Notes under the pieces: model-generated
Databases searched by the model: none
What the model was told of the DNA's origin: nothing
Seen by the model: only the letters and a program-made list of their open reading frames with translations
In this document: positions 3,601 through 13,869 of the stretch, piece after piece
Layout: each line of letters starts with the position of its first letter
How positions within the stretch are numbered: the first letter of the stretch is position 1
Program-made: the position numbers and the translations under genes
Assembly: GCA_001724265.1 (NCBI GenBank)
Contig: MEDY01000074.1
Span: 62,001 to 90,556, forward strand
Origin: Rhizaria sp. SCN 62-66
Lineage: Eukaryota
DNA length: 28,556 nucleotides
Direction: 5' to 3'

Positions 3601-6600
3601 TCACCGTTTATGCGTGCCCGCTCGGCGCCGTCCTCTGCTCACCTCCTAGTCCTCAGCTCTCTCGTCCTCTTCTTCCTCGTTGTTCTCACGAGCTTTGCCC
3701 GTGCGACTCCGCGCCTCCGCACTCCGCCCCGCCGCGACAGGCGAGGCAGTTTGCGCTGCAGCTGCAACGCCGGCACTCCTGCGCCCACTGGCGGCACGGA
3801 CACTGTTCGCACTCGTTGCCCTGCTCATACTACTCGCACTTGTTGCGCTGCTGCATCCGGTGCTCGCGCGACTGACAATACTGCCAGCGCCCAGCGCAGC
3901 GCCCAGTGCGCCCGCGCCCTCATACTCCCACGGGTCCGGGTCAAGCAGGTCTGACAGCGCCCGCAACCGCGACTGAGAGCGCGTCACCCGACCAGCAACC
4001 CCGATTGCACTGCGCTTGCCAGTTGTGGCAGCGACTGTGGTAACCTCAGCGGCGAGCGCGGCGGCTGAGGGGCGCAAGCGGCGCGTTGCGGGCGTTGCCG
4101 GTGCCCCGGTTTCCGCCTCGTTGTCCACCATGGCTGCAGCTGCGCGCGCCCTGACTGCGGCTGTTGCGGCGCTGGTGCTAGCGCGCCGCGCTGCGCTCGC
4201 TTCCGCAGCCGACAAACCTGTCACTGACCCTGAAACTAACTCTGGCGCTGCGGGTGTGCGCCAGAAGGCCGCAGAAGCGGGTGAAAGTGTGCTCAACACA
4301 GCGCGCCAACTGCGCGGCTCTCTAGCCACAGCGGCCTGTGCTGCTGTCTCTTCAGTGTAACCGTCGCCGCTGTCGTCGTTGCCGTCGTTATCGCTCACTG
4401 GCTCCGCGCCAGCGTCATCGGCCCACGCGCGCTGTGAAGATCTGGACACGCGCCGACCGGCGGCCCCGCGCGCAGCTGCACCGCCAGTGACGCTCGGGCG
4501 GACTAGACCGCCACTGGAGCCCATTACGCGAGTCAGATCGATGCGATGTGTCCCGCGGCCAGTCGCAGCTGCCGCGGACGCCGCCTAGTCGCAACTAAGC
4601 CCCGTGCCCCACGCGCCGTTGCTGCTATTGTAGACCTCGCACCCAGCAGCGCTGCCGCCGCCGCTGCCAGTACCGTATTCTAGCGCTGGCAGTGCGCGTT
4701 GCCGCCGGCTGCCCGACAACGCGCTTGCAGCAGCGGCCGCAGCTGCTGCGGCGGTTGCGGCGGCAGTGGCCGCGCTAATTGTCGCACTTGAGCCGCGGTT
4801 CTGCCATCCTGCCGCCGCGCCGCCCGTGGCCGCTGCCGCCGCACTGGCCGCCTCTGCCGCCGACGCCGACGCCGCAACGGCTGCTTCGAGCCTCGCTTCA
4901 AGCCGCGCTAGCTGTCTCCGCAGATCCCCCTGTCCGCGTTCCACTGCGCGTTGCACGGCCTGCAACGGGTCACGGTGCGTTGCCAAGCAGTGGGCGACCG
5001 CAAGCAACGCCGCTGCGCACGCCGCGTAGCGCAGCGCGCCTGTGGCGGCCGCGAAGGCGTCGGGTGTGAGCGGTGCGCCCAGCAGCCAGCCAACCCAGTC
5101 GCTGTGCGAGATTAGCACGCGTTCCAGCGCAAAGGCTGACGCCAGAGCGAGGAAAGCCGTTCCACGCGCGGGTGCGGTTCGCGGCATTGCGGTTAGTAAC
5201 ACAGCCGCAAGCAACGCAACTGGGTAGAAGAGAAATGAGGCCGCTGACGAGAACTCCAACCTTAGCTTTGTGATGCCACCGGTCGCCTGAAAGGGGAAAA
5301 CATCGTATTTGGCACAATATTACACATTTATGAGGAATTTCACGACTTACGTTGAACTCTTTTGGACTGTTTCAAGTTGTCTCAGCTCTAACGCATGTGA
5401 ACGTACCTCGTGCACAAGCCCCATAAGCTTGTCCCTTGTGCCACGGAGCTCGCGTCCAATCGCCTCAGTCTGCAACAGCACGCTGTCATGCATACTCGCG
5501 ATTGATGCAATTCCGGACTGAGCATCCCGCAGCCGCACCTCCATGGCCTCCTGCCGCGCATGTCAAAGTCAGAGAATTTGTGAGCACATAACATGTTTAA
5601 AGTTCATGTAATGCGCACATCTGATTTGATAATTCCGGTCCAACGTACCTGTGATGTGACCATACCCTTCATAGCAGATTCTGACTCTGCGCCTAGCCGC
5701 GCTACTTGCCCCCTCGCGTGCTCAAACGCTGCTTGACTTTCCTTCCTCAGCTCCCCAAGCCCGCCGGTTATACCGCCCAGCTGCTCCGCTGCTGCGCGCT
5801 GCTGTCTCTCAACTTCGCGGCCTTGCTCCTGCAGCGCGCGCCCCGCCGCCAATGCGGCCTCGACGCCCGCAGCGACTTCGCGCTGCCCCGCGGCGAGCGC
5901 TGCAACGCCGGAGCTCGCGCTGGCGACCGCAGCGGCAAGCTCGCCGTGACGCGCGGTCTGTTCAGCAGTCAACGCCGACAGCGATGCCGCCAGCTCGCCG
6001 TGGCCGCGAGCAACGGCGCCCGACACCGAGGCAAGCCCTGACTCAACGCCCTGTAACGCGGCGGCCGCGGCCGCGGAGGCTGACGAGAGAGCTGAGACAG
6101 AGCGCTGTGTCGCTGCGTTGAAGAGATCACGACGTCGGAAATAGCATAGCGAATCGACCTGAGAGAAGAATGTCGTGAATGTGGAGTACGCCTGCGCATT
6201 GGCGCCGATGCGCCTGCGACACTCTGAGAATGACTCAGTTGCTGCGTTACTATCTGTTGACGTTGAGCTTGCAGCGCCGGATGCCATGGTGGGGTCTTGA
6301 GGCGCTGACGCTGCGCAGGGAATCGGAGGCAGACCAACAGACTCAAGCTGACAGTTGGTGAGTGCAAAAGCAATGCGCGCACGGCCTTCGTCACTGAGCA
6401 GTGCACACTGCGACGTGAAGAGTGCCTCGACGTCCGGTCGCGCCCAACAGCCATCTAGCCTCGCCAGCTCCGCAGGCAGAACCACCGCGCGCGACCCCGT
6501 CGCCTCACCTGGGCCTGCACCAAATAGTCCACCGATTAGCCAGCTTGGCGTCGGCTCTTGCGTTGGTTGCGTGGCTAGAGCGCGCAGACCTGCCGTGGAG

Positions 6601-7712: not shown

Positions 7713-10700
7713 ATGGCGACCTCTCACCAGCCGAAGCGCAAGCTGGCGCAGTCGGAGCTGGACGACCTCGTGCTGCTCGACACTATCTCCGAGCAGCGCA
7801 TCCTAACCGTGCTCAAGAACCGCTACTCGGGTGACTCGATCTACACGTGCATTGGTCCCGTGCTGATTGCCATCAACCCGTACCGCACGATCCCGAGTCT
7901 GTACACCGAGGCCGTGATCCGCACGTACCGCGGCAAGAAGTACTTCGAGATGCCCCCGCACCCCTACGCCGTGACGGACGAGGCCTACTCGGCGCTGCTA
8001 TCGCACCACGAGAACCAGTGCATCATCATCTCCGGTGAGTCCGGCTCCGGCAAGACGGAGACGTCCAAGATCATCATGCAGTACGTCTCCTCCGTCTCCG
8101 GCCGCGGCACCGAAGTGCAGCGTGTCAAGGATCGCATGCTCTCCTCCAACCCCATCCTCGAAGGCTTCGGTAACGCCAAGACGATCAACAACAACAACTC
8201 GTCCCGCTTCGGCAAGTACATGGTGCTGCACTTTGACTACGGAGGCGACCCCGTCGGTGGACACGTGTCCAACTACCTACTCGAGAAGTCCCGTGTCGTC
8301 GGCCCTGCTGTCAACGAGCGTAACTTCCACGTCTTCTACCAGCTCACCGCTGGCGCCTCGCAGCAGGACCGCACGGCGCTGTACATCGAGAGCCCGTCGT
8401 ACTACCGCTACCTCAACGGCACCGGCTGCCTCACCGTCGACGGCATCAACGACGCTGCCGACTGGCGCGAGATGTCCGAAGCCTTCGCCACCGTCGGTCT
8501 GCCTGATGACGAGCGCCGTGAGATCATGCGCACGCTCTCCCTTGTGCTCTGGCTCGGCAACCTCACCTTTGAGGAGACTGCGCAGGAGGAGTCGTTCCCC
8601 AAGGACCAGGGCGTGGTTGACATCATCGCGCATTTGATGCAGATCTCCTCTGCCGACGTCACTGCGGGCCTCTGCGTGCGCACGATTACCGCCGGCACCG
8701 AGGTCTTCAAGAAGCCCTGCACGCTTAAGGAGGCCGAGTTCAACCGCGACACGATGGCCAAGGCGCTGTACTCGCGTCTGTTCGATTACCTCGTCGCCAA
8801 GATCAACGAGTCGATCCAGCCCCCCGCGTACGAGGGCAACGTCATTGGTGTCCTCGATATCTTCGGCTTCGAGATTTTCCAGCACAACTCGTTCGAGCAG
8901 CTCTGCATCAACTTCGTCAACGAGAAGCTGCAGCAGATCTTCATCGAGCTCACTCTCAAGACGGAGCAGGAGGAGTACAAGGCCGAAGGCATCCCCTGGA
9001 CTGATGTGCCGTACTACAACAACAAGCCCGTGTGCGACCTCATCGAGGGCATGCCCGGCATCCTCTCTCTGCTCGACGATACGTGCTCCACCAACAAGAC
9101 GGACCAGAACTTCGCGTTCGCCATGGGCCAGCTTTTCGCGCAGAACGAGTGCGTGACGTGCGGCGCCACCGACTTCCTCGTGCGTCATTACGCCGGCGAG
9201 GTGCGCTACGACGCCAACGGCTTCGTCGTCAAGAACAAGGATACCCTCTTTGACGACATCATCATGTGCCTGCAGAAGTCCCCTCAGGGCTTCGTTCAGT
9301 ATCAGGGCTGGGCCGCGCTCGACGTCGCCGGTCGCGCCAAGAAGCGCCCCCCCACTGTCTCGCGCGTGTTCCGCGACCAAGTCAAGGCGCTGACGACTGC
9401 GCTCATGTCGTGCGTGCCGCACTACATCCGCTGCATTAAGCCCAACATGACTAAGCAGCCCAACACGTTTGACACACCCATGATCCAGCGCCAGGTTCAA
9501 TATCTCGGTCTGCTCGAGAATGTCCGCGTCCGCCGCGCTGGTTACGCGTACCGCTCCACGTTCGAGCGTTTTGCGCGCCGTTACGGTGTGCTGTGCCCGT
9601 CGCTCGTCGGCGTCCGCACCGGCACGTCCGCCGAAGACGACAAGAAGCACGTGCTCGCGCTCACTGGCCACCTCAAGTGGACCCACGGGAAGGAGTTCGC
9701 GATGGGACACACCAAGATCTTTATCTCCGAGGCTGCGGTGCTGTTCAACCTTGAGGAGCTGCTCGAGCGCAAGATTTCCCAGGCCGTCATGGTGATCCAG
9801 GCCGCATACCGCCACTACCTGCAGCGCCGCAAGTTCATGGAGCTCAAGGCGCTGGGTTACGAAGCGCTTAAGACGCTCAACAAGGAGCGCCGTCGCCACT
9901 CGCTCGGCCCCGCGGCGTCTGCGCCGTACATCGGCGACAACCTGAATCTGCGTCTGTGCCAGCCCGTGCAGGGCCTGCTGCTCATGTCCGGCGGCGCTAA
10001 GGAGAGCGTCGTGTTCGCGGACCGCGCGCACCAGGTCGTCGTTAAGGAGCGCAAGGGTCTGCTGGGCCGTATCTTCAGCGATGAGACCAAGGTCGTGACG
10101 GAGTCCCGCATCCTCATGGTCACCAACAAGGCCGTGTACCTGTTCAAGCTCGTGCACGACCCCGACGCCAACGCGGGCGGCAACGGCGCCGTCGCGAAGC
10201 TCACTTTCCGCGTCACGTTCAACCAGATCACGTCTCTGTCGCTGTCTCCCTACTCGGACGGCTACGTCGTGGTGCACTTTCCCGAGTCCGTCGGCGTGCG
10301 CGACACGCTGCTCAGTGTGCGCCGCAAGACCGAGTTCCTGGCTGCCGTGCTCTACGCGTGCGAGGCGCTCTCGCTGCCGGCGCCGCTGCGCTCGGTCACC
10401 GAGGACCGTATCCTCCTCAACGCCAAGAAGCAGTCGTACTCGGCCATCACGTGGGTCAAGGACGAGGCTGTGTCTCCGGACACCGCGCGTGTCACCAAGC
10501 TCAAGACCGATTTCACCATCGCCGTGCCGACCGGTCTCCCGTTCTCGTCCTCTGTCGAGCCCTACCGCCCGCCCAAGGTCGACTACGTCACCGGCGGCCG
10601 TCTCGCTCTGCGCGCGCTCGCCGACGTGGCCGGCAACGGCGTCGACGAGCTCGCCTTTTCCGCGGGACAGATCCTCTACGCCATCCGTGACGAAGACAAG

Positions 10701-11363
10701 GGCTGGTACCAGTGCGAGATCGGCGACCAGGTCGGCTGGGTCCCCACGCACACCGTCGAACGCATCGGCGGCCCTGCCGCTGGCACCACCGGCAGCGCTG
10801 CCCCCGGCGCGCGCCCCCAGTTGCCTCCCGGCCGCCCCGCCGGCGGCCCTGCTGGCAGCGCTGCTCCCGCGTTTACGGCCGCGCCCGGCGCGCCCCCGCG
10901 CCCCGCCGCGCCCGCTGGCCCGCTCATCACGTCCAACTCGCCCGCCCAGCGCCCGTTCTTCAACTCCCCCGCGCCCGGTAACGCGGGCCCCGGCGGCGCG
11001 AACCCGCACGCGCCGCCCGCGTTTCCGCGCGCGCCCTCGGGTAACGTCGCCGGCGGCGGCGTCGGCGGCGGGCTCGGCCGTCCCGTCATCCCCCCGCCCA
11101 CGCAGCAGCCTCTCAACACGCCCGCGCCCGCGGCCGCGTCGTCCTCGGGCCCCGCGGCCGGCGGCGCGGGCGGACCTGGTGTGCGCGCGCTCACCGGCGG
11201 CTTCCAGGGAATGAACCTTGGCGGCGGCGTCGGTGCCCGGCCCCCGCCGCCCGCGGCGCCCGCGTCGGCCTGGATTGCGCACGTTGACCCCGCCACCGGC
11301 AACACCTACTACGAGAACAAGACGACCGGCGTCACGCAGTGGGACAAGCCCGCCGGTTTCTAA
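7713..11363 (+). CDS. MYO1: Class I myosin (1216 aa): motor, IQ, TH1, SH3, Gly/Pro/Ala-rich region, C-terminal WW
   Basis: P-loop GESGSGKT, switch I NNNSSRFGK, switch II DIFGFE, FEQLCINFVNEKLQQIF, PHYIRCIKPN, YLGLLENVRVRRAGYAYR (class I type), IQAAYRHYLQRR, TH1-like VVFADR...RILMVTNKAVY, SH3 about 10602-10766, WW about 11268-11351. Ends in TAA. An upstream ATG|GTATGT at 7309-7317 spliced to the CAG at 7703 could add four residues. Confidence 0.97.
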   Translation: MATSHQPKRKLAQSELDDLVLLDTISEQRILTVLKNRYSGDSIYTCIGPVLIAINPYRTIPSLYTEAVIRTYRGKKYFEMPPHPYAVTDEAYSALLSHHENQCIIISGESGSGKTETSKIIMQYVSSVSGRGTEVQRVKDRMLSSNPILEGFGNAKTINNNNSSRFGKYMVLHFDYGGDPVGGHVSNYLLEKSRVVGPAVNERNFHVFYQLTAGASQQDRTALYIESPSYYRYLNGTGCLTVDGINDAADWREMSEAFATVGLPDDERREIMRTLSLVLWLGNLTFEETAQEESFPKDQGVVDIIAHLMQISSADVTAGLCVRTITAGTEVFKKPCTLKEAEFNRDTMAKALYSRLFDYLVAKINESIQPPAYEGNVIGVLDIFGFEIFQHNSFEQLCINFVNEKLQQIFIELTLKTEQEEYKAEGIPWTDVPYYNNKPVCDLIEGMPGILSLLDDTCSTNKTDQNFAFAMGQLFAQNECVTCGATDFLVRHYAGEVRYDANGFVVKNKDTLFDDIIMCLQKSPQGFVQYQGWAALDVAGRAKKRPPTVSRVFRDQVKALTTALMSCVPHYIRCIKPNMTKQPNTFDTPMIQRQVQYLGLLENVRVRRAGYAYRSTFERFARRYGVLCPSLVGVRTGTSAEDDKKHVLALTGHLKWTHGKEFAMGHTKIFISEAAVLFNLEELLERKISQAVMVIQAAYRHYLQRRKFMELKALGYEALKTLNKERRRHSLGPAASAPYIGDNLNLRLCQPVQGLLLMSGGAKESVVFADRAHQVVVKERKGLLGRIFSDETKVVTESRILMVTNKAVYLFKLVHDPDANAGGNGAVAKLTFRVTFNQITSLSLSPYSDGYVVVHFPESVGVRDTLLSVRRKTEFLAAVLYACEALSLPAPLRSVTEDRILLNAKKQSYSAITWVKDEAVSPDTARVTKLKTDFTIAVPTGLPFSSSVEPYRPPKVDYVTGGRLALRALADVAGNGVDELAFSAGQILYAIRDEDKGWYQCEIGDQVGWVPTHTVERIGGPAAGTTGSAAPGARPQLPPGRPAGGPAGSAAPAFTAAPGAPPRPAAPAGPLITSNSPAQRPFFNSPAPGNAGPGGANPHAPPAFPRAPSGNVAGGGVGGGLGRPVIPPPTQQPLNTPAPAAASSSGPAAGGAGGPGVRALTGGFQGMNLGGGVGARPPPPAAPASAWIAHVDPATGNTYYENKTTGVTQWDKPAGF

Positions 11364-12378: not shown

Positions 12379-12849
12379 TTACGCGTCAACGAGGTCGGGG
12401 GCATCGCCGTTGGCGGCATCCTCGAAGTTGCCTTCGAAGGCAGCCATGTCGGGCATGCCGTCGGGCTTGATGGCGCCAGACGCGGAGAGCTGAGCGAACA
12501 TCTTCTGGAGCTCGGCAATGGAGTCGCCGCCGAGCTGGGTGAGGATGCCGGGGAGGAGCTCCTGGAGGGGCTTCACCTTGTGGTAGCCCTGAACGATCCA
12601 GGCGTTGGCCTCGACGGAGCCGGTGACCTTGGGGCGGGGGAAGTTCATGACGTTGCCATCAGCAAGGAACATGTTGACCTCCTCGATCTGGGGGATGGGG
12701 CGGCCGCCAATCTTCTCGATGACGGTGGTGACCTTCTTGTCCTCAGTGGGGGCAGCGCGGGCGACGGGGGCGACCTTGCGGCGGACACCACCGGTGCGGG
12801 ACGCGGCCTGGGCCTGGAGGGCCTTGAGCTTCTCGGGGTTGATGGGCAT
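12379..12849 (-). CDS. BTF3: Nascent polypeptide-associated complex subunit beta (BTF3/EGD1), 156 aa
   Basis: MPINPEKLKALQ...RTGGVRRK...EDKK...IPQIEEVNMFLADGNVMNFPRPKV...ANAWIVQG...LQELLPGILTQLG. Ends in TAA. The upstream part of the listed ORF is pyrimidine-rich and non-coding-like. Confidence 0.96.
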   Translation of the reverse strand: MPINPEKLKALQAQAASRTGGVRRKVAPVARAAPTEDKKVTTVIEKIGGRPIPQIEEVNMFLADGNVMNFPRPKVTGSVEANAWIVQGYHKVKPLQELLPGILTQLGGDSIAELQKMFAQLSASGAIKPDGMPDMAAFEGNFEDAANGDAPDLVDA

Positions 12850-13364: not shown

Positions 13365-13652
13365 TTAATTGCGACGACGAAGCTGCCAGGAGGGGTCAAG
13401 CGCCTTCGGCAAGTCCTCCTCGAAGGGGTTCGCCTTGCCTTCGTCGCTGCGGTCAGCGAGGCTGTCGCTGGGCGCCGTCTCGGTCTAGGTGCCGTTGAAA
13501 AGCTCAATGGAGCCGTCCTTCGCGGGCACGTAGCTCGCGCGGTCCGGCGGGGCGCGCAGCGCGTCGGGCACGGAGCTCAGACGGTCCGCGTTGCGACGGC
13601 GGACGCTCGTCTCGCGCAGCCCAGTGAGCACGAGCTTCGACGGGGGGTTCAT
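13365..13652 (-). CDS. Small unknown protein, 95 codons, with an in-frame TAG at codon 56
   Basis: Polypyrimidine-CAG|ATG, then MNPPSKLVLTGLRETSVRRRNADRLSSVPDALRAPPDRASYVPAKDGSIELFNGT(TAG)TETAPSDSLADRSDEGKANPFEEDLPKALDPSWQLRRRN-TAA. The GC-rich island coincides with ATG to TAA and is flanked by AT-rich DNA. Not in the ORF track. Confidence 0.7.
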
Positions 13653-13869
13653 CTGCGGTAGGAGTCGGAAAGCTATGAAGCTAGGAAAAGGAAATATAAT
13701 AAAAAAGAAGGAACACGCACAAAATGCGGGGGTTTGTGAACGAGTAACTGGAACTTAAGTCAGTAGGGCCGTGATGGTGCAGGTTAACCTCGACTTGACG
13801 ATCATCCCGCCCAACGGAGCTGACAAACCTGACAACTTGAAAAATATTGCACCGCGCCTCGCATTGCTC

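Follow-up and report, generated by a model that had tools for sequence, protein, structure and literature searches.

Few nuclear genetic codes separate UAA from UAG. As set out in the relevant sections of PMC11687900, PMC5304391 and PMC10553269, either UAG alone is read as Leu, Gln or Ser while UAA remains a stop, or both codons have been recoded. The UAG-only reassignments named there are those of the rhizarian exLh (Leu) and Iotanema spirale (Gln) (PMC5304391), and of phyllopharyngean ciliates (Leu, Gln) and Scotinosphaera (cited as Ser) (PMC11687900). Glu is assigned to UAG in Oligohymenophorea sp. PL0344, which reads UAA as Lys (PMC10553269), and to both UAR codons in peritrich ciliates and Blastocrithidia (PMC11687900, PMC12153298). 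Thr32 of the release factor eRF1 bonds the G of UAG, and in Iotanema, where UAG encodes Gln, this residue is replaced by Gly (PMC5304391).

A code in which UAG specifies Glu while UAA and UGA are stops was not found in searches of the open-licence literature of PubMed Central and bioRxiv. We propose, with a probability of about 0.82, that such a code is the nuclear code of the uncultured wastewater protist described here, and that a gene cut by an in-frame TAG is a single gene encoding a 95-residue protein. UAA and UAG are nearly always reassigned jointly; here, UAG alone appears to have changed.

The window, that is, the whole stretch of 28,556 nucleotides that was analysed, belongs to a eukaryotic contig with introns, part of an assembly of 34.9 Mb. 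The split gene and its surroundings are organized as follows.

13365..13652, minus strand: complete coding sequence, 95 codons plus TAA, for a small lineage-restricted protein of no known family.
13488..13652, minus strand: codons 1-55, G or C in 50 of 55 third positions (GC3); the portion reported by standard gene callers, as P0001 (55 aa).
13485..13487, minus strand: in-frame TAG, codon 56, presumed Glu; Asp in the homologue P0122.
13368..13484, minus strand: codons 57-95, 3' of the TAG, GC3 32/39; aligned in frame to the C-terminal part of P0122.
13431..13445, minus strand: DEGKA, codons 70-74, identical in P0122.
13422..13430, minus strand: NPF, codons 75-77, not kept in P0122.
13365..13367, minus strand: TAA, the true stop of the split gene, followed by sequence of 36% GC.
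13653..13720, minus strand: pyrimidine-rich tract ending in CAG directly 5' of the ATG, a likely splice acceptor.
13735..13762, minus strand: upstream stretch of 28 bases, also matched in a diverged relative from X4, with a loose end at 13762.

A preliminary description, made from the letters alone, had reported a hidden 95-codon gene cut by the TAG into 55 and 39 codons, with 32 of the 39 codons past the TAG ending in G or C and a fall in composition directly after the TAA at 13367-13365. A re-read of 13652-13365 and a recount agree. In total, 82 of 94 codons have G or C in the third position. Downstream of the TAG the other two frames are lower (26/38 and 19/38), the chance of at least 32 of 39 at p=0.5 being 3.5e-5, and the 117 bases 3' of the TAA are 36% GC. 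The third-position bias suggests that the protein is probably well expressed. The tract at 13653..13720, which is diverged in the X4 relative, is likely to be the acceptor of a cis intron or of a spliced-leader outron, and the 28-base stretch upstream of it may tentatively be regarded as a promoter or 5' exon.

An exhaustive HMMER search with the product of the split gene returned two matches, the truncated self (P0001) and P0122, a protein of 92 residues (E 1.2e-5) that aligns to positions 3-87 of the query and spans the TAG. P0122 continues across the TAG with Asp at that position. It keeps K45, D46, S48 and F52 on the 5' side, and E58, L65, D67, DEGKA, D80, P82, K83 and P87 on the 3' side. 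Aligned with the corresponding stretch of P0122, the part after the TAG alone scores 41, a value reached by 59 of 20000 shuffles; its other frames score 16 and 26, and BLASTP gives the same pair E 0.012. A word-based protein search gave no match beyond the truncated self, a first metagenome scan found no relative of the gene, and a second found only the identical copy L197. The product had been called an orphan; no family was found for it in Pfam, NCBIfam or the PDB, but the existence of P0122 means that it is not a strict orphan. The NPF motif noticed 3' of the TAG is indeed present; since the position reads AEL in the only full-length homologue, it carries no weight. The best PDB match, the NMDA receptor subunit GluN1 (E 0.035 with a two-sequence profile), was treated as chance. 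AlphaFold gave P0122 a pLDDT of 59 and a pTM of 0.11 from a two-row alignment, and the protein is probably largely unfolded by itself. It is conceivable, though rather doubtful, that it is an accessory subunit peculiar to the lineage, with the conserved N-terminal motif and DEGKA contacting a partner, rather than an EH-domain ligand.

A contig of depth 3.4 from the poly(A) RNA library X8, which stems from a study distinct from the possible source studies of the assembly, covers 13418-13695 with no differences, no gaps and the TAG unchanged. Because it continues past the likely acceptor 5' of the ATG by 43 bases, it may represent unspliced RNA or DNA and is no proof of a mature mRNA. L197, from another assembly that may share its source, is identical to the locus over 2985 of 2985 bases. 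Given the X8 contig and L197, the TAG is no assembly error. A long X4 contig also covers the locus; the 12 listed of its 15 differences all lie at 12721-12802. X4 further contains the diverged relative of the split gene (21 differences over 128 bases), which reads KDGSVEVF in place of KDGSIELF four codons before the TAG. Another X4 contig with a loose end, at 13486-13523, is flanked by unrelated sequence and was treated as chance. Diverged BTF3 sequences (12721-12802 and 12385-12697) are present in X4 as well; with diverged copies of both genes there, a related species or strain co-occurs in that sample, and it would be useful for dating the code change.

These sequences bear on a purely local explanation, in which the TAG stems from a nonsense mutation in a gene undergoing decay, was introduced during assembly or serves as an intron acceptor. 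The claim that no splice signal accompanies the TAG stands only in part: in-frame GT dinucleotides are present upstream (13631, 13604, 13571 and 13529), and 12 of the 20 bases 5' of the TAG are pyrimidines, so missing splice signals alone cannot exclude an intron. What does exclude introns ending at this TAG is conservation, since the residues that they would remove are kept in both P0122 and the X4 relative. TAG is often an acceptor in this genome, as five TAGs from family searches proved to be (four in kinases and one in a DEAD-box gene), but the true TAG acceptors follow long pyrimidine tracts, whereas the TAG of the split gene sits among GC3-rich codons. The TAG is also unchanged in a separate study, and a local lesion cannot account for the eRF1 gene, the CFAP21 gene or the tRNA described below. 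The local explanation is thus highly improbable and largely refuted.

The behaviour of TAG across the genome was assessed with a coding model trained on the genes of the window and on kinase domains. The blind sample comprised the window and 60 stretches of ten kb, 628,556 bases in all, with 40 coding codons required before a stop. Coding sequence continued in frame past five of nine TAGs (one of them the split gene), none of 48 TAAs and none of 36 TGAs; continuation after sense codons is about 0.8. Of the remaining four TAGs, one was borderline, one was an antisense artefact, and two were associated with intron donors, the first lying within its donor and the second immediately ahead. In a larger set of 1,012,671 bases, which includes loci chosen because they bear a TAG, the stops flanked on both sides by coding sequence numbered 19 for TAG, one for TAA and one for TGA, the comparison codons GAG and GAA being flanked in this way 4917 and 662 times. 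Under looser settings, 22 TAGs comprised 12 continuing, six unclear, one donor and three drops, each of the drops with a GT donor-like site within 30 bases downstream; 122 TAAs and TGAs comprised 70 clean ends, 48 donor-associated, three unclear and one continuing (TAA 0/73, TGA 1/49). The sample, about 3% of the genome, contains no clear TAG gene end, compared with 70 clean TAA or TGA ends. UAA and UGA remain terminators in the sampled genes, and UAG is very probably a sense codon genome-wide.

UAG is used rarely, at about 0.2% of Glu codons in the blind sample and 0.3% in the TAG-enriched one; this corresponds to about 1 in 10,000 codons and about 1 in 300-500 Glu codons. In-frame UAGs were found in otherwise intact genes for eRF1, CFAP21, a Ubc6-like E2, five kinases, a Ski2-like helicase and a MORN protein, besides the split gene. 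Nine of 142 kinase matches have TAG as the sole stop, five of these being exonic and four intron acceptors; the only TAG among 43 DEAD-box matches was rejected as an intron acceptor. The long genes of the window (myosin I, Ipi1-like, phosphatidylserine decarboxylase, seipin and NAC/BTF3) are free of in-frame TAGs, and their stops are TAA or TGA. One further in-frame TAG was noted in the window.

4585..4587, minus strand: second in-frame TAG of the window, joining ORF 5187-4585 in frame to ORF 4524-3646, with weak coding scores on both sides.

It belongs to a multi-exon gene at 6656-3601 (minus strand), whose last exon reads through the TAG at 4587-4585 and then meets a TAG at 3648-3646, 14 codons before a TGA; the latter is either read through as well or represents a rare gene end at TAG. 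The gene presumably resembles GEX1/Kar5-type nuclear fusion proteins, the Pfam family Tht1 being matched at E 0.39 only.

A different account would retain the standard code and attribute the continuing frames to stop-codon readthrough, leaky or programmed, with a weak suppressor tRNA or a near-cognate one decoding UAG; most ribosomes would then terminate there, and the 55-residue form would be the main product of the split gene. The rarity of UAG in coding sequence and the single CUA tRNA gene would suit it, as would an eRF1 that keeps NIKS, E55, L69, S70 and YxCxxxF. Nevertheless, the only eRF1 found is itself split by a TAG at residue 107, before GGQ, and TAG is absent from the clean gene ends sampled. 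Programmed readthrough needs a leaky 3' context at a gene end and a functional short form; the context at the split gene is confirmed as TAG-ACC, earlier described as no known leaky context, and the contexts at the 19 TAG sites are varied, with no common readthrough motif and with several sites in mid-domain. Readthrough under the standard code therefore seems very improbable, while partly leaky decoding of UAG is compatible with its reading as Glu. The central claim made for the split gene, translation past the TAG through recoding of UAG, is in this way borne out by the full-length homologue, the ungapped contig from the RNA library and the genome-wide evidence.

The split gene had also been put forward as the cleanest test case for recoding. 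It is not, since the linker in which its TAG is located shows little conservation; the residue is named by the eRF1 gene, the CFAP21 gene and a CUA tRNA. A family search with eRF1 domain 1 recovered one eRF1 and one pelota-like gene, the former with an in-frame TAG.

L032:1596-1594, minus strand: in-frame TAG of the eRF1 gene (G000:C63), in domain 1; GC3 of the exon 0.89.

The exon aligns with human eRF1 without gaps over 237 residues. At the TAG, position 107, the column holds E in 106, D in 11, V in one and Q in none of the 118 homologues listed, out of 120 (two long fused records were left out). The single Val is that of P0004, a JGI sequence and the closest eRF1 relative (84% identical), and this weakens the site as evidence for Glu. 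In CFAP21/EFHB, the TAG of NYGN-TAG-P takes the place of the E of NYG(N/D)E in all five alignments listed, out of eight matches; by their entry names, these range from Chlamydomonas to mammals. Two of the exonic kinase TAGs lie where E is the top or joint-top residue among the organism's own paralogues (10/41 and 8/41, with Q at one and two); two others are at variable columns, and one is in an insertion. In the Ubc6-like E2, the residues opposite the TAG are D, D, S, S and D. The MORN and Ski2-like helicase sites are variable and uninformative, leaving only two strongly conserved TAG sites.

Some sites have a Gln context. In a diverged ubiquitin-like domain, the TAG stands where four other ubiquitin copies of the same genome have Gln, and three TAGs (L073, L137 and L061) are within Gln-rich tracts. 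They would fit a genome-wide reassignment of UAG to Gln, the commonest stop-to-sense change, or to a mixture of Glu and Gln; a single base change separates CUA from the Gln anticodon CUG, and likewise from the Glu anticodon CUC. The contexts may, however, be explained by CAG-to-TAG transitions tolerated as Gln-to-Glu changes, and the absence of Q from the eRF1 column and the Glu in all five CFAP21 alignments listed speak against Gln, as does the body of the tRNA. A pattern search for tRNAs with anticodon CUA gave 16 candidates, one of which is a true tRNA with this anticodon.

G000:C84:76008-76080, minus strand: tRNA(CUA), single copy in the genome.

The molecule forms an intact cloverleaf with all stems paired (58 bits with the covariance model) and fits the standard model over positions 1-71, with a five-pair anticodon stem, GG in the D-loop and a normal T-loop. 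Free folding (z -1.5) did not reach the full cloverleaf; the covariance model is the better test. Among 36 other distinct tRNAs recovered, a set that includes no tRNA-Asp, tRNA-Glu(CTC) is the closest (47/73 ungapped, 64%), and tRNA(CUA) has the first five acceptor pairs, TCCCA/TGGGA, in common with each of the two Glu tRNAs. The ten nearest sequences include no Gln tRNA, and the Gln tRNAs of the genome start with GG. The pattern matches L077-L079 are the 3' stem of tRNA-Leu(CAG) and not CUA anticodons. A pattern for intron-less, short-arm tRNAs with anticodon UUA had no match in the genome. With a Glu acceptor stem on the tRNA, reading of UAG as Gln, wholly or in part, is very improbable. Another label, 'Pyl', was given to the tRNA by ARAGORN because of the anticodon alone, and would imply that UAG encodes pyrrolysine; the standard cloverleaf is unlike the anatomy of tRNA-Pyl, and UAG sites align with Glu or Asp, making pyrrolysine extremely improbable. 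Together, the conserved columns and the tRNA body point to Glu, an assignment that would lie outside the Leu, Gln and Ser of the reported UAG-only codes.

The eRF1 carries three substitutions in the stop-recognition motifs, T32S (GSS for GTS), G57S and T58K, and keeps the NIKS, E55, L69, S70 and YxCxxxF elements listed earlier. Among the 118 homologues listed, S32 and S57 each occur in none and K58 in one. P0004 retains T32 (with GTS) and G57, and has K58 and M126 in common with the protist. Its lineage is a candidate for a standard-code sister, and as a near relative with GTS in its eRF1 it could serve as a control. By analogy with Iotanema, we infer that eRF1 has lost recognition of UAG.

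In the code proposed here, with UAG read as Glu, the codon would have been nearly abandoned as a terminator, as is observed in the sample. The single-copy Glu-type tRNA(CUA), presumably charged by GluRS, would decode UAG only, because a CUA anticodon cannot wobble onto UAA (PMC11687900). The grip of eRF1 on the third-position G may be partly lost through T32S in the GTS loop, following the example of T32G in Iotanema, and G57S and T58K beside NIKS perhaps contribute. UAG is rare and occurs for the most part where substitutions are tolerated, which would be expected of a slow codon with a single tRNA gene to decode it; selection would keep it rare.

A further possibility, which we consider unlikely, concerns the position of the codon within eRF1 itself. 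The code change might be early, UAG having been lost as a stop and one Glu-type CUA tRNA and a T32S eRF1 gained (T32S being absent from the closest sampled relative), with eRF1 still competing at UAG; the UAG in domain 1 would then be a negative-feedback switch, in which more eRF1 truncates its own synthesis and UAG readthrough is held at a set level. The chance of finding a UAG in this gene is about 1 in 15 to 1 in 10, given an estimated 30-35 Glu codons and the measured UAG rates, and its placement supports feedback weakly. The likeness to known release-factor autoregulation is that of a release-factor mRNA whose full translation depends on the efficiency of termination. The bacterial RF2 frameshift is such autoregulation through the factor's own stop signal. 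Plant eRF1 is also reported to be autoregulated through its own stop signal (PMC5397192). Unlike both, the protist eRF1 would depend on a recoded codon within domain 1, a placement that may be due to chance.

DNA of the assembly is present in bioreactor and wastewater sequencing runs; the analysis drew on those with more than a small share of it. The genome encodes axonemal proteins, contains spliceosomal introns and shows signs of spliced-leader trans-splicing. An X9 contig joins 16 foreign letters to the AG at 12856-12855 of the window (minus strand), before the BTF3/NAC start. The 16 letters are absent from the window and have one-mismatch matches at nine places on other contigs, compared with none for the control.

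G000 C8, C11, C43, C79, C115, C374, C584, C644 and C659 (L194-L196): leader matches.

Three of the nine loci were examined and hold near-identical units of about 100 bases, in which the leader is followed by a GT donor, with predicted hairpins in common. The units have no Rfam match, and the 14-base leader core was not found in the literature searched. Trans-splicing at BTF3, which these sequences suggest, rests on one contig. The leader has only a six-base word in common with that of Paulinella, a weak hint of cercozoan affinity. The match to SSU rRNA (G000:C706:4459-8903, plus strand) covers 4445 bases for a model of 1831 positions, which implies about 2.6 kb of insertions or introns. The ubiquitins (L105, L198, L199, L200 and L193) are unusually divergent, monomer-type genes with a short tail; no tandem repeat junction was found in the sequences read. 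The myosin I gene of the window (7713-11363, plus strand) is intron-less and encodes TH1, SH3 and C-terminal WW domains. Its nearest relatives (53-72%) are environmental sequences, many with an identical layout, and the nearest eRF1 matches are environmental sequences as well.

The usual account of stop-codon reassignment by AT drift does not fit this protist, whose coding DNA is too rich in GC and whose use of UAG is too infrequent; the case may represent the first stage after codon capture. The Glu-type amber tRNA and the T32S eRF1 form a testable natural pair for dropping UAG while keeping UAA. In practical terms, standard gene calling truncates genes of this genome, as illustrated by the 55-residue P0001 in public collections, and codes with such rare use would escape screens based on coding density.

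Compared with the systems introduced at the outset, as described in the cited sections, the proposed code is like those of exLh, Iotanema, the phyllopharyngean ciliates and Scotinosphaera in that UAG is sense, UAA and UGA are stops and a CUA tRNA is present. As in Iotanema, Thr32 of eRF1 is changed (T32G there, T32S here), while L69 is unchanged, unlike in exLh. The amino acid differs, being Glu rather than Leu, Gln or Ser, and so does the usage, since UAG is widespread in the ciliates (PMC11687900) and very rare here. In the context-dependent codes of the Condylostoma type, the same codon ends genes and occurs internally; here, no clear TAG end is present in the sampled 3% or so of the genome, although TAG may still end a gene on rare occasions. 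PL0344 offers a parallel for the amino acid, as its UAG is read as Glu through CUA tRNAs derived from tRNA-Glu and the tRNA of this protist is of the Glu type. However, PL0344 has ten CUA tRNA genes compared with one here, and reads UAA as sense, whereas in this protist UAA is a stop (TAA not continuing in 48/48 and 73/73 cases) and no match to the UUA tRNA pattern was found. Peritrichs and Blastocrithidia likewise read UAG as Glu with tRNA-Glu(CUA), but they also read UAA as Glu, and Blastocrithidia UGA as Trp, where UAA and UGA are stops here; their genomes are AT-drifted, with UAG at about 1.4-1.7% of codons, in contrast to the GC-rich coding DNA of this protist.
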